From the NCBI GenBank assembly GCA_035995165.1, contig DASYKU010000050.1, forward strand, positions 3,040 to 67,039: 64,000 nucleotides of DNA, in the 5' to 3' direction. The stretch is from Mycobacteriales bacterium. Lineage in GTDB: Bacteria > Actinomycetota > Actinomycetes > Mycobacteriales > CADCTP01. The position numbers were made by a program, and so were the translations under genes. Shown one piece after another: positions 52,576 through 56,459 of this stretch. The notes beneath the pieces are model-generated. The model saw only the letters and a program-made list of their open reading frames with translations. It did not search any database and was not told the DNA's origin. Numbering within the stretch: position 1 is the first letter of the stretch; each line of letters opens with the position of its first letter.

Positions 52576-54246
52576 ATGTCCGCGGGCCGACGGATCGCCT
52601 GGTCGTCGACCGACCGCTACAGCCCGGTCCAGGACCGGGCCGGGGTCTTCGACCCGGCCGACGACGAGCTCCCGCCCGTGTCCCTGCGGGTCAACCAGAA
52701 CCCCTCGCCGTACTGGCCGGGGTGGCTGGACGAGCGCGAGATCCTCCGGGTCACCTACCAGGGTGACGATCGCTGCAATTTGCGCTGCCCGGGGTGCTAC
52801 ACGGGCGAGCGGCTCGACCGGCCCTCGATCGCGCCCACCGCGGCCAACGAGCGACTGCGCGTGCCGTGGGAGGACTTCACCGGTCACCTGCGCGGACTCG
52901 GCGCGGGGCTGCAGGATTTCTACCTCCTCGGGGCCGAGCCGACGATGGACCCGGAGGGGTCGGCGGCCAAGCTGGAGCACGCGGCCGCGGTCGGCCTGGC
53001 CACCATGTCGATCACCAACGGGGCGACCTCGCCGGCCCGGTTCGACCGGACCTTCGGGCCCGCGCTGGAGGCCGGTGACCTCTACAAGGTCATCGTCAGC
53101 CTGGACTCGATCGACCCGGCCGTGAACGACGCGCTGCGCGGCTCGGCCGGCGCGTTCCGCAAGACCATCGCCACGATCGAACGGGCAGTTGCACAGGGCG
53201 TACCGGTCAAGGTTCAAGTCACTGTTTGGCCGCGCAATTACTTGACCGTTCTGGAAACAGTACGTGCACTGTGGGAGATGGGAGTGCGCGGTTTTGCTTT
53301 CCACAGCGGTTCGGTGGAAGGCACGTCCGACTTCTTGGCCAAGGGGCTGGATCACCTCGATCCGCTCGCGTGGCGCACGCTCTGTGAGCGGCTGTACGAG
53401 TTCCGGGACACGCACCGTGACGAGCTGGTCCATTTCAACTTCCCGCTCATCTACTTCACCGAGCGTGAGCTGCGCGGCCGGGTCATCGGCGACGACGAGC
53501 TCGCGGACGCGTACCTGACCCACGTCGCGGCGGTCGAGGAGGGCGTGGACTCGACCAAGCCGTTCCACGCCTGCCCAGCCATGGACGTCCCCCAGGTGTA
53601 CGTCTACGCCAACGACGGGCCGGCCGGGCGCGGCTCCGTCTCGCTCTGCAACGTGCACAGCCCGGATTCGGACGCGGCCTTCGCCGACTACGACCCGGAC
53701 AGCGGCCGCTGGCGGATCGTCGAGGACCCGGCCCGCAACCAGATGCAGCGGATGGCCGACTCGCCGCACCTGTGCCCGGCGATGCCGTTCGCGACCGGCG
53801 GGCGTAGCTCGGACCGGGTCGTCACCGAGGCCGGCGCGCTCTACCACGCCTGCCGCTACCTGGGCTGCAACCAGATCGCGACCGACCAGGGCCAGTTCGG
53901 GTGGACGGCCTGGGAGCGGTCGGTGGAGTTCTACCGGGCCGTCGAGGTGCTGCGGGCGGTCTCCGTACGGTCCGGGGCGGAGGCGGTCGAGCCGCACCTG
54001 GCCCGGGTCCGGCGGCTCGGCACCGGCGTCCCGACCCTGCGGGACCGGACGATCGCGGTGCTGCGGGAGGCGGCCTCGCTCGGCGCGGTCGAGCTGGACG
54101 CGTTCCCGGCCGAGGTCGTGGCCGCGGTCGGGACGTCCCGGCGCTCGTCCACCGTCCCGCTCGGGCTCCCGGTCTTCGTGCTCGGGGCACCCGGCGGGGA
54201 GACCGACGGGGCCGGCGCCGCGACGCCGTGCGGGAGCTGCCGGTGA
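52576..54246 (+). CDS. radical SAM protein, 556 aa (PqqE/MoaA-like core plus a long Cys-containing C-terminal region)
   Basis: ORF 52531..54246, start set at ATG 52576 after GGAGAGGGAG. The CX3CX2C motif is DDRCNLRCPGCY. Other motifs are LLGAEPTM, SITNG and VSLDSIDPAVNDALRG. C-terminal cysteines are FHACPAMD, SLCNVH, HLCPAMP, YHACRYLGCNQ and TPCGSC. Confidence 0.8.
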   Translation: MSAGRRIAWSSTDRYSPVQDRAGVFDPADDELPPVSLRVNQNPSPYWPGWLDEREILRVTYQGDDRCNLRCPGCYTGERLDRPSIAPTAANERLRVPWEDFTGHLRGLGAGLQDFYLLGAEPTMDPEGSAAKLEHAAAVGLATMSITNGATSPARFDRTFGPALEAGDLYKVIVSLDSIDPAVNDALRGSAGAFRKTIATIERAVAQGVPVKVQVTVWPRNYLTVLETVRALWEMGVRGFAFHSGSVEGTSDFLAKGLDHLDPLAWRTLCERLYEFRDTHRDELVHFNFPLIYFTERELRGRVIGDDELADAYLTHVAAVEEGVDSTKPFHACPAMDVPQVYVYANDGPAGRGSVSLCNVHSPDSDAAFADYDPDSGRWRIVEDPARNQMQRMADSPHLCPAMPFATGGRSSDRVVTEAGALYHACRYLGCNQIATDQGQFGWTAWERSVEFYRAVEVLRAVSVRSGAEAVEPHLARVRRLGTGVPTLRDRTIAVLREAASLGAVELDAFPAEVVAAVGTSRRSSTVPLGLPVFVLGAPGGETDGAGAATPCGSCR

Positions 54247-56459
54247 GCGGGGAACCGCGGTCCGCGGACCCCGCCCAAGCCGGCCCCGTGACGCGGGCCG
54301 GTCTCGCCCCCTCGCCCGACCCGCGCCGCGAAGACGCCTCGCCGACCCGCCCCACCGACCGCGCCCTCGCCCCACCCGCCACCCCGCCCGCGCCGCCGGC
54401 CCGGCCGGCGGTAGGCGGCGCCACCACGCCCGCGGCCCGGCCCGCGGCAGCGGCTCCGGCGGGCGGCGCCACCCTGCCCGCGGCTCGGCCCGCGGCAGCG
54501 GCTCCGGCGGGCGGCGCCACCCTGCCGGCGCCGCCGGCCCGGCCGGCGGTAGCGGCCCCGGCGGGGGACGACGCGCCCGCCCCGGCCGAGCCCGCCCAGC
54601 CGCCGCCGGCCAAGCCCGCCCAGCCGCCGCCGGCGGAGGCCGCCCAGTCGGCAGCGGCGGCCGCCCTGCCGGCGGCGCTGCCGGGCGAGGCGACCGGACC
54701 AGCCGCCGGGGGAGAGGCGCACGCGCCGTTCCATCGGCGGGTGCGGGGGATGCTGGGGGGCTGGGTCGGGGCCGGGCATCGCGGCCCGGCGTCGGGCGGT
54801 GCACTCGGCCCGCTGGTGAGCGCGCACGTCGAGCAGCACCCGGAGGCCGACGTCGTCACCCTGGAGCGGGCGTACACGGTCGCCGAGGAGATGCACCGGG
54901 GCCAGCGCCGCAAGTCCGGCGAGCCGTTCATCACGCACCCGCTCGCGGTCGCCACGATCCTGGCCGACCTCGGCCTGGACACCACCACGCTGGTCGCCGC
55001 GCTGCTGCACGACACCGTCGAGGACACCCGCTACACGCTGACCCGGACCCAGCAGGACTTCGGCCTCGAGGTCGCGCACCTGGTCGACGGCGTGACCAAG
55101 CTGGACAAGGTCCGCTTCGGCGCGGACGCCGAGGCCGAGACGCTGCGCAAGATGATCGTCGCCGGCGGCCGGGACCTGCGCGTCCTGGTGATCAAGCTGG
55201 CCGACCGGCTGCACAACATGCGGACCCTGCGCTTCCAGCCGATCCACAAGCAGGAGCGGATCGCCCGGGCCACCCAGGACGTGCTCGTCCCGCTGGCCGA
55301 CCGGCTGGGCATCCACGTGCTCAAGCGCGAGCTGGAGGGCCTCTGCTTCCCGGTGCTGCAGCCGGCCGAGGCGGCGCTGGCGACCGAGCTGGACCGCAAG
55401 CGCCGCCAGCACCGGGCCGCGATCGCCGCCGCCGTCGCCCGCGAGCTCGGGCCGGACCTGCGCGACGCCCGGATCGCGGCCACCGTCACCGAGCGCCCGC
55501 GGCACCTCTACTCGGCGTACCGGACCAGCCGGGAGCGCGGCGGCTCCGGCGCCGAGCTGCTCGACGCGGCCCGCATCCTGGTCCTGGTGCCCGACGGTGA
55601 CCCCGGCGACCCGTACGCGGCGCTGGGGCTCGTGCACGGGCGGTGGCGGCCGGTGCCGGGCCGGTTCAAGGACCTCATCGCGGTGCCGAAGTTCAACCTC
55701 TACCAATCGCTGCACACGACCGTGATCGGCCCGGGCGGCGAGCCGGTCGACGTGCTCATCCGGACCGAGTCCATGCACCGGGTCGCCGAGCACGGCGTGG
55801 CCGCGCACCTGCAGGACGCGGACCGGCCGGGCCAGGTCGGCGTGTCCAGCGGCCGGGACATGGACTGGCTGCGCCGGCTGCTGGCCTGGCAGCGCGAGGT
55901 CGCCGACGCGGGGGAGTTCATCCGGACCCTGCGCGACGATCTCGGCGACGGCCGCGAGATCACGATCATCACCACGGACGGCGAGACGGTGCCGCTGCCG
56001 GCCGGGTGCACCCCGGTCGACCTGGCGTACTCGTTGAGCGGCTCGATCGGCCACCGTACGGTCGGGGCCCGGGTCAACGGCCGGCACGTCCGGCTCTCCA
56101 GCCCGCTCGGCGACGGCGACCTGGTCGAGATCCTCACCTCCGAGTCGGAGAACCCGGGGCCGTCCCGGGACTGGCTGTCCTCGGTCCGGACGCCGAACGC
56201 GGCCGTCCGGATCCAGCAGTGGTTCACCGAGCAGAGCCGGGACGTGGTGATCGAGCGCGGCCGGCACGCGCTGGAGGTCGCGTTCACGGCCGCCGGCGGG
56301 ACGAGCCTGGAAGCCGCGGTCGAGGACGGCTCCCTGCTGGTGACCACGCTGGAGCTGGGCCACCGCCACCTCGAGGAGCTGTACGCGGCGGTGGCCGACC
56401 GCCGGGTCGAGGCCGAGCACGTCGTCGCCCGCAGCGCCGTCCACGCGCCGCCCGCCTGA
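54243..56459 (+). CDS. RelA/SpoT-homolog paralog (RSH2): P/A-rich N-terminus, intact HD hydrolase domain, altered synthetase motifs, TGS domain, no CC/ACT domains
   Basis: GTG 54243 overlaps the radical-SAM TGA, within ORF 53901..56459. The HD region has [26 protein letters not shown] and [11 protein letters not shown]. The synthetase region reads [27 protein letters not shown] and DVLIRT. The TGS domain reads ITIITTDGETVPLPAGCTPVDLAY. Confidence 0.8.
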   Translation: MSGEPRSADPAQAGPVTRAGLAPSPDPRREDASPTRPTDRALAPPATPPAPPARPAVGGATTPAARPAAAAPAGGATLPAARPAAAAPAGGATLPAPPARPAVAAPAGDDAPAPAEPAQPPPAKPAQPPPAEAAQSAAAAALPAALPGEATGPAAGGEAHAPFHRRVRGMLGGWVGAGHRGPASGGALGPLVSAHVEQHPEADVVTLERAYTVAEEMHRGQRRKSGEPFITHPLAVATILADLGLDTTTLVAALLHDTVEDTRYTLTRTQQDFGLEVAHLVDGVTKLDKVRFGADAEAETLRKMIVAGGRDLRVLVIKLADRLHNMRTLRFQPIHKQERIARATQDVLVPLADRLGIHVLKRELEGLCFPVLQPAEAALATELDRKRRQHRAAIAAAVARELGPDLRDARIAATVTERPRHLYSAYRTSRERGGSGAELLDAARILVLVPDGDPGDPYAALGLVHGRWRPVPGRFKDLIAVPKFNLYQSLHTTVIGPGGEPVDVLIRTESMHRVAEHGVAAHLQDADRPGQVGVSSGRDMDWLRRLLAWQREVADAGEFIRTLRDDLGDGREITIITTDGETVPLPAGCTPVDLAYSLSGSIGHRTVGARVNGRHVRLSSPLGDGDLVEILTSESENPGPSRDWLSSVRTPNAAVRIQQWFTEQSRDVVIERGRHALEVAFTAAGGTSLEAAVEDGSLLVTTLELGHRHLEELYAAVADRRVEAEHVVARSAVHAPPA
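54396..54650 (+). repeat. in-frame tandem repeats encoding the Pro/Ala-rich N-terminal region of RSH2
   Basis: The 48-bp units 54428-54475 and 54476-54523 differ at 1 position and encode [16 protein letters not shown] x2. Flanking PPARPAV units lie at about 54396 and 54533. A 24-bp period CCCGCCCAGCCGCCGCCGGC x2 lies at about 54588-54645. Confidence 0.85.
54936..55027 (+). repeat. paralogous tract nearly identical to relA 50267..50358
   Basis: My by-eye alignment of the two 92-nt tracts finds 6 mismatches. Similarity continues at a lower level through the HD domain (about 50230-50640 versus 54900-55310). Confidence 0.8.

Follow-up and report, generated by a model that had tools for sequence, protein, structure and literature searches.

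To our knowledge, (p)ppGpp metabolism is thought to be handled wholly by the synthetases and hydrolases of the RelA/SpoT homologue (RSH) family, together with a few Nudix and GppA enzymes. The subject of this report is a gene pair from a Mycobacteriales bacterium (assembly GCA_035995165.1, contig DASYKU010000050.1) in which a gene for a radical S-adenosylmethionine (SAM) protein, here termed rSAM, is directly followed by a gene for a second long RSH, here termed RSH2. The pair lies downstream of rel in the 64,000-nucleotide stretch of DNA that was analysed (positions 3,040 to 67,039 of the contig, forward strand), referred to as the window; coordinates are those of the window. An earlier reading made from the letters alone (the sequence-only reading) had proposed a two-gene module in which a nucleotide or alarmone-like molecule, made or modified by rSAM, is hydrolysed or sensed by RSH2, and had been aware of no described pairing of this kind. 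A literature search likewise found no paper linking radical SAM enzymes with RelA/SpoT homologues.

The RSH half of the pair is of a known kind, the rSAM half belongs to an uncharacterised family, and the pairing is new; we know of no rSAM partner described for RshA, and of no small alarmone hydrolase (SAH) described as coupled to a radical SAM gene. RshA is an actinobacterial Rel duplicate (PMC3153485). Like RSH2, it is a second long RSH of Actinomycetota that derives from Rel; it stands beside rel in Frankia, and in Salinispora it lacks the CC and ACT domains (PMC3153485). RshA has been classed HS, with hydrolase and synthetase both presumed active, whereas RSH2 and the truncated family described below are Hs by their residues. 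SpoT of Acinetobacter baumannii (SpoT_Ab, PDB 7qpr) resembles RSH2 in being a long RSH with an intact HD domain and a degenerate synthetase that has lost the catalytic Gln. In SpoT_Ab the HD domain is active, whilst the inactive pseudo-synthetase, defined by absence of the corresponding Q and D, has a regulatory role (PMC9974481). SpoT_Ab differs in belonging to the gammaproteobacterial SpoT lineage, in keeping the TGS-HEL-ZFD-RRM domains and in having no rSAM partner. Furthermore, the G-loop Tyr and the catalytic Asp are missing from SpoT_Ab; RSH2, conversely, retains the Asp and the G-loop but not the zinc-finger domain (ZFD) and ACT, and its G-loop may still permit nucleotide sensing. In both proteins the HD domain is specialised and the synthetase (SYNTH) vestigial. 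The SAHs (Mesh1 and PaSAH; PDB 6yvc and 6z3n) share a single domain and the same catalytic residues with one Saccharibacteria partner of rSAM, although the known SAHs are stand-alone or occur in a toxin–antitoxin (toxSAS) context. On the radical SAM side, BlsE, DesII, MoaA and viperin/pVip have in common with rSAM a partial TIM-barrel core with a C-terminal extension, and match it weakly in profile searches. By contrast with these, rSAM is about 200 aa longer and has its own N-terminal segment and four widely spaced invariant Cys.

Co-location of the rSAM and RSH genes

Gene contexts were collected by a genome scan and a metagenome scan and then analysed with tblastn. The rSAM loci at ≥60% identity were taken as the relA-linked clade, and were counted only where at least 800 bp of downstream flank was present. 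RSH2 stands directly after rSAM in 30/30 of these loci, which are phylogenetically close, so that the count amounts to far fewer independent events, in about four to five arrangement types. In two of the 30 (L008 and L056) the surroundings of the pair are unrelated and relA is missing. Other arrangements were found beyond this clade. In Actinomadura sp. BRA 177, Spirillospora sp. NPDC048824 and two metagenome-assembled genomes (MAGs), rSAM and RSH are convergent and 0-210 bp apart, with a 19-nt overlap of the 3' ends in Spirillospora sp. NPDC048824. Ktedonobacter robiniae (Chloroflexota) has rSAM, a 2-hydroxyacid dehydrogenase gene and then a convergent gene for a 635-aa RSH, 1.3 kb from rSAM, whose synthetase is degenerate. 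Finally, in a Candidatus Saccharibacteria MAG (L030; CAZHJG010000001.1, 9363-11380) the gene for a 221-aa SAH-like protein shares 4 nt (ATGA) with the start of rSAM. The best solved relatives of this protein are the P. aeruginosa SAH entries (E 3e-7); it has 8/8 HD residues in a single domain, without a synthetase.

The rSAM gene is repeatedly and specifically linked to an RSH-type HD hydrolase domain: at least three phyla show the link, and at least four gene arrangements. The single-domain partner in L030 indicates that the conserved partner is the RSH-type HD hydrolase and not the pseudo-synthetase; of the two fates that the sequence-only reading had offered for the putative product, this bare HD domain favours 'hydrolysed' over 'sensed'. 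Pairwise identities of rSAM and of its partner are correlated at r=0.95 (Mantel 0/2000), a value that plain vertical inheritance would also be expected to give. rSAM and RSH2 form a conserved, co-evolving two-gene module, and in this respect the earlier proposal has held up in the wider survey of homologs. None of the three outcomes that the sequence-only reading had named as refuting its proposal was encountered.

The host of L030 is an episymbiont with a reduced genome. In a related Saccharibacteria locus (L003), an HD_4-like open reading frame lies 7.5 kb from rSAM, and its ED dyad has an altered second residue (HDAPEHH).

Anatomy of the two proteins and of their junction

By its Pfam score, its CX3CX2C cluster and a modelled partial TIM barrel, rSAM is a member of the radical SAM superfamily. 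Radical_SAM (PF04055) matches aa 66-230 at 41.4 bits against a cutoff of 29.5. The motifs picked out in the sequence-only reading are invariant in a family alignment of 16 sequences, namely C67/C71/C74, G119/E121 (GAEPT), T147 (SITNG) and S175/S178 (VSLDS); with all the catalytic SAM-binding motifs kept, the protein has the look of an active enzyme. Where several C-terminal Cys pairs had been noted, the same alignment shows four single cysteines instead, C333, C358, C400 and C426, which lie 25-42 residues apart and are invariant across phyla. They represent a candidate auxiliary Fe-S site. Further residues beyond the SAM motifs are invariant in the family, which also has a unique conserved N-terminal segment, whilst a terminal CGSC is confined to the relA-linked clade. 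No SPASM domain was matched in Pfam at E≤0.01, and the seven-Cys pattern of the CX2CX5CX3C type is absent from rSAM.

Assignment of rSAM to a characterised family was considered and rejected, in line with what had been proposed. Neither rSAM nor its remote relatives reach any curated NCBIfam family; the scores of rSAM are far below the cutoffs (BlsE 41.7/400, viperin 33.9/180, MoaA 31.3/284, PqqE 29.7/381). Homologs of rSAM form about 120 clusters, and the family itself is tiny, with 34 representatives at E≤1e-30 in an exhaustive profile search of 1.84 billion representatives, about 13 of them full-length members. The same search returned a distant sister group of 350-430 aa. An AlphaFold2 (AF2) model (pLDDT 87, pTM 0.86) was compared with solved structures in Foldseek, where BlsE was best (E 1.6e-11, TMt 0.66), followed by SuiB and SkfB and then by DesII, MoaA, anSME, NifB and viperins. 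These neighbours mix nucleoside- or nucleotide-directed enzymes (BlsE, DesII, MoaA, viperin) with peptide-modifying ones (SuiB, SkfB, anSME). An anti-phage defence (pVip) role was also rejected, since PADLOC gave a weak 36-bit match confined to the radical SAM core; the housekeeping chromosomal context of the window locus likewise disfavours it.

RSH2 is a long RSH in its architecture of HD, SYNTH and TGS domains (TIGR00691, 509 bits against a cutoff of 499.2). Pfam gives HD_4 at 148 bits, TGS at 62 bits and RelA_SpoT at 70 bits, the last compared with 147 in the adjacent Rel. No ACT or RIS match was found in RSH2 with Pfam, both being detected in the adjacent Rel, and the protein ends after a helical region past TGS, without ZFD/RIS or ACT, as the sequence-only reading had described. 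Residues were numbered as in Rel_Mtb through a HMMER alignment to 5xnx. All eight metal-binding and catalytic residues of the HD domain are kept (equivalents of R47, H56, H80, D81, E84, D85, D147 and N151), and RSH2 is predicted from them to be hydrolase-competent, again as first read. In the synthetase the substitutions are G241E, K244R, K252T, G268R, R270L, E325D, Q327L, W345L, Y347D and K348A, whilst D265 and H344 are retained along with the whole G-loop (PGRFKD..PKFN.YQSLHTT). The altered synthetase motifs reported earlier are real in the alignment, except that the change given as DLVGIRI to LDAARIL was shifted by one residue, D265 being kept. With its synthetase altered in this way, RSH2 does not appear to be a redundant copy of Rel. 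In Rel_Mtb, G241E inactivates the synthetase, and mutant data also exist for H344Y. The loss of the ATP motif and catalytic residues suggests that the RSH2 synthetase is dead, with the guanosine G-loop retained, and the protein as a whole would be a ribosome-independent, hydrolase-only long RSH. The Pro/Ala stretch of about 190 aa noted before the HD domain is present and ends in a Rel-like motif, HRRVRGMLGGW. It holds a perfect 16-aa direct repeat in two copies (aa ~60-95), and it varies greatly in length between orthologs, with the frame preserved.

The overlap of the rSAM TGA with the RSH2 GTG, read earlier as GTGA at 54243-54246, is real in the sequence, with a Shine-Dalgarno GGGAG at 54232-54236, 6 nt upstream. 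The same 4-nt overlap was called by gene callers in four further loci (L005, L006, L007, L009), and rSAM and RSH2 are contiguous in L014, L034, L035 and L039. The coupled GTG start of RSH2 is supported by an uninterrupted frame that reaches, in 7/8 orthologs and despite their length variation, from the stop of rSAM as far as the HD domain, by conservation of the first ~14 residues (VSGEPxSADPAQ) among orthologs, and by the position of the HRRVRG motif upstream of the sole internal ATG. GC content at third positions is above 85% in all three frames of the Pro/Ala region and so discriminates no frame.

Two boxes, AAAGTCGTTATTGC (52464-52477) and TGTCTGAATA (52494-52503), are conserved in the otherwise diverged 266-bp spacer between rel and rSAM. 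They contain a TTATT...AATAA inverted element, and their positions are fixed at -112/-82 from the rSAM start in relA-linked loci. The boxes are missing in L008 and L056, which share another conserved upstream sequence also containing AGTCGTT. A riboswitch or leader RNA upstream of rSAM was rejected: the region has no match in Rfam, and RNAalifold on 11 spacers gave -6.5 kcal/mol and no meaningful covariation. The conserved blocks were accordingly read as DNA-level sites, and the boxes are probably the module's own promoter or operator. A scan of the spacer for sigma-70 promoters and terminators found none.

The window locus and the origin of RSH2

The window is high-GC DNA of a soil MAG. Its order of genes is secD, secF, apt, rel, rSAM and RSH2, followed on the opposite strand by a TrAA12-like gene and a cyclophilin gene (Table 1). 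A rel gene stands upstream of the pair in most, though not all, related loci.

Table 1. Coordinates of rel, the rSAM-RSH2 pair and adjoining features in the window.
Feature	Position	Strand	Basis
Canonical bifunctional rel	50132..52309	+	HD_4, RelA_SpoT, TGS, AH/RIS, ACT; TIGR00691 859 bits
Conserved non-coding boxes	52464..52503	+	Alignment of 11 rel-rSAM spacers
rSAM gene, 556 aa, rare uncharacterised family	52576..54246	+	Pfam, NCBIfam, family alignment, AF2/Foldseek
CX3CX2C cluster motif (C67, C71, C74)	52774..52797	+	Invariant in family alignment
C-terminal segment with four further invariant Cys (C333, C358, C400, C426)	53572..53853	+	Alignment; AF2 confident here
Translational-coupling junction: Shine-Dalgarno and GTGA overlap	54232..54246	+	Sequence
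RSH2, predicted hydrolase-only long RSH (RshA-like), 738 aa	54243..56459	+	Profiles and residue alignment
RSH2 Pro/Ala-rich, length-variable N-terminal extension	54243..54809	+	Sequence, ortholog comparison
RSH2 HD_4 (p)ppGpp-hydrolase domain, aa 210-357	54870..55313	+	Pfam, 148 bits
RSH2 pseudo-synthetase domain, aa 418-524	55494..55814	+	Pfam RelA_SpoT, 70 bits
RSH2 TGS domain, aa 573-632	55959..56138	+	Pfam
TrAA12/GSDH-like beta-propeller gene, convergent with RSH2	56466..57821	-	tblastn 75% to L005 ortholog
Cyclophilin gene	57865..58653	-	

The sequence-only reading had taken rSAM, RSH2 and the PQQ-dehydrogenase-like (TrAA12-like) gene together as an insertion after relA. Of the three, the view of rSAM as a newcomer stands. 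The TrAA12-like gene, whose stop codon is 6 nt from that of RSH2, is not a constant part: it is present in L005, L006, L009 and most related loci and missing from L007. Its window copy has no match in the local Pfam copy, though precomputed annotations of its orthologs detect the domain. RSH2, for its part, is probably no insertion. Its actinobacterial host, a position next to rel as in Frankia and the loss of CC and ACT as in Salinispora lead us to read it as RshA-like. Rel and RshA of Frankia have consecutive accession numbers (PMC3153485 tables), which implies that rel and rshA are adjacent genes there. From these comparisons, RSH2 probably arose by an old tandem duplication of rel, of the RshA type, and rSAM alone would be the newcomer. 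In a neighbour-joining tree, the co-directional rSAM-linked RSH2 and the lone RSH2 groups of the MAG lineage adjoin that lineage's own Rel, and the convergent RSH partners of Streptosporangiales fall in a separate large clade.

Long RSHs that are truncated to 560-620 aa and lack ACT proved, in a protein search, to be abundant among Streptosporangiales, Trebonia, Fodinicola and soil MAGs. Among 54 that were sampled, the eight HD residues and the G-loop Tyr/His are conserved in all (54/54). In the synthetase, position 241 is never Gly (0/54), G268R is a family signature (53/54), at least 53/54 lack K252, as is the case for R270 and for Q327, and E325 is kept in 17/54. Synthetase degeneration with loss of ZFD and ACT is common to 54/54, many of them without rSAM; as a correction to the sequence-only reading, this decay is not special to the pairing. 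The lone, rSAM-free truncated RSHs imply that the hydrolase-only state predates, or is independent of, the partnership with rSAM.

Some lone truncated RSHs, about 58% identical to RSH2, lie downstream of hemE-hemH, which encode uroporphyrinogen decarboxylase and ferrochelatase, in related MAGs (L010/L011, 10001-11746, and the P0187 locus), near PspC-type two-component genes. The canonical rel is split into at least two tblastn pieces or called genes in three MFD nanopore MAGs (L005, L012, L015), and the reading frame of RSH2 is shifted in L012; the most likely cause is faulty assembly at homopolymers (indels), and not decay to pseudogenes. In the window, the rel frame is open for about 125 codons 5' of the first ATG/GTG/TTG (50132). 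This stretch (49760-50131) encodes an N-terminal extension conserved in rel orthologs, and has no canonical start codon. Judged from the sequence, translation of rel may begin at a non-canonical codon; otherwise the window copy may have lost the extension.

A proposed shared nucleotide pool and its alternatives

We tentatively favour, at a probability of roughly 0.45, a model in which rSAM and the RSH HD hydrolase act on the same 3'-pyrophosphorylated guanine (or purine) nucleotide pool. The HD domain would remove the 3'-diphosphate, either from (p)ppGpp or from an rSAM-modified derivative, and rSAM would perform 5'-deoxyadenosyl-radical chemistry on the ribose or base of the nucleotide just before or after hydrolysis, so making or modifying an alarmone-like nucleotide. 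The G-loop of the pseudo-synthetase may bind a nucleotide allosterically. In the window lineage, rSAM and RSH2 would be translated as a coupled unit, under their own promoter, downstream of rel. A common substrate is a prediction of this model, and the two proteins might also form a physical complex. A connection of rSAM with nucleotides is weakly suggested by its nucleotide-type structural neighbours and by nucleotide-hydrolase genes near it in other lineages. In Nocardiopsis sp. NPDC050513 (L002, 10001-14895), rSAM and a gene for an APH-like kinase are followed 2 kb on by a dGTP triphosphohydrolase gene (498 bits), and in a gut contig of the candidate phyla radiation (CPR; L058) rSAM adjoins an NrnA-like DHH phosphoesterase gene. 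A sister rSAM of 26% identity occurs on a Nocardia sp. NBC_01388 plasmid (L059; NZ_CP109554.1, 4741-13096) in the order FAD monooxygenase, nucleotidyltransferase, rSAM, rSAM, GltX, amidase and NUDIX, an order suggestive of a biosynthetic cluster for a small molecule, which might be an aminoacyl-nucleoside. The Nocardiopsis locus lies close to a TrwC relaxase gene, and its context may be mobile or defence-like.

A number of observations weigh against the shared-pool model. No RSH-type HD protein was found within ~7 kb of rSAM in five loci (L001, L002, L003, L028, L058), which come from Flindersiella, Nocardiopsis and three Saccharibacteria/CPR sources, and many truncated RSHs have no rSAM nearby. 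The convergent rSAM and RSH genes are not co-transcribed. The structural neighbours of rSAM include the peptide-modifying SPASM enzymes SuiB, SkfB and anSME, and its scores against all curated families are far below the cutoffs. To these points may be added the close relatedness of the relA-linked loci and the vertical inheritance that would itself produce the observed correlation of identities.

It is rather unlikely that the two genes share no more than their regulation. RSH2 would then be an ordinary RshA-type (p)ppGpp hydrolase and rSAM the source of an unrelated metabolite, cofactor or RNA modification, both being useful under one set of physiological conditions (when starvation ends, for example), and neighbours for reasons of expression. 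The truncated hydrolase-only family is indeed large and mostly rSAM-free, the Saccharibacteria rSAM genes have housekeeping-type neighbours (ValRS, TsaD, CysRS), and the module has its own conserved upstream boxes; however, four gene arrangements in three phyla, with two architectures of the same HD domain, are hard to explain by co-expression alone. A coupling at the level of the proteins seems quite improbable. Here rSAM would either sense redox state, iron or SAM, or modify its partner post-translationally, and would thereby switch the RSH hydrolase on or off and replace the regulatory input lost with ZFD and ACT, no small-molecule substrate being shared. RSH2 has lost its ribosome-sensing C-terminal domains, the tight 4-nt translational coupling suggests stoichiometric production, and the Fe-S ligands are invariant, all of which would suit such a switch, as would the extra C-terminal tail ending CGSC in the relA-linked clade. 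This tail, however, coincides with the Shine-Dalgarno and start-codon nucleotides of the next gene, and its conservation may be at the DNA level. Moreover, none of the catalytic SAM-binding motifs is missing from rSAM, which is also found with no RSH beside it in Flindersiella, Nocardiopsis and several Saccharibacteria, the convergent pairs are not co-translated, and a bare HD domain as partner leaves little room for a regulatory target.

The possibility that RSH2 has remained a synthetase but accepts other donors or acceptors, pyrophosphorylating for instance an rSAM-made nucleotide to yield a new alarmone, is highly improbable. D265, H344 and the whole G-loop are kept in RSH2 of the window, E325 is replaced by D, and the conserved G268R signature suggests selection rather than decay. 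Against this stand the universal loss of G241 among the truncated RSHs, the near-universal loss of K252, R270 and Q327 and the frequent loss of E325. In SpoT_Ab, loss of the corresponding Q and D defines the inactive pseudo-SYNTH (PMC9974481), and from the Saccharibacteria partner a synthetase domain is missing altogether. Very unlikely, too, is chance, whereby rSAM landed within the rel-rshA tandem of one lineage and was inherited there with no functional link. Frankia rel and rshA are adjacent with no intervening gene, as judged by their consecutive accessions, and one soil MAG lineage supplies most of the paired loci. Hitch-hiking is nevertheless largely excluded by co-location in multiple arrangements and phyla: the pair moves together away from relA in L008 and L056, and independent pairings are seen as convergent genes in Streptosporangiales, in Ktedonobacter and as the SAH-rSAM overlap in Saccharibacteria. 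Given that the family counts about 34 representatives among 1.84e9 proteins, chance would not be expected to place its members next to one domain family again and again.

Within the preferred model of a shared nucleotide pool, a more specific claim is that rSAM performs radical chemistry directly on an alarmone-type nucleotide, be it (p)ppGpp, a GTP/GDP product or a related 3'-pyrophosphorylated purine, which the RSH-type HD protein makes or clears. This claim is more doubtful. Cultured carriers (Spirillospora sp. NPDC048824, Actinomadura sp. BRA 177 and Ktedonobacter robiniae) make the proposed link directly testable. Through the pairing, two orphan groups become accessible: a rare rSAM family whose unusual C-terminal domain bears four Cys, and the truncated hydrolase-only long RSHs of Actinomycetota, which are widespread yet unstudied. 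Provided that the link is a biochemical one, rSAM would represent a new enzyme class in alarmone or nucleotide-signal biology. Should the radical chemistry indeed take place on the alarmone itself, it would constitute a hitherto unknown branch of alarmone metabolism, whether a modified alarmone or a radical turnover route, conserved from soil Actinomycetota and Chloroflexota to Saccharibacteria.

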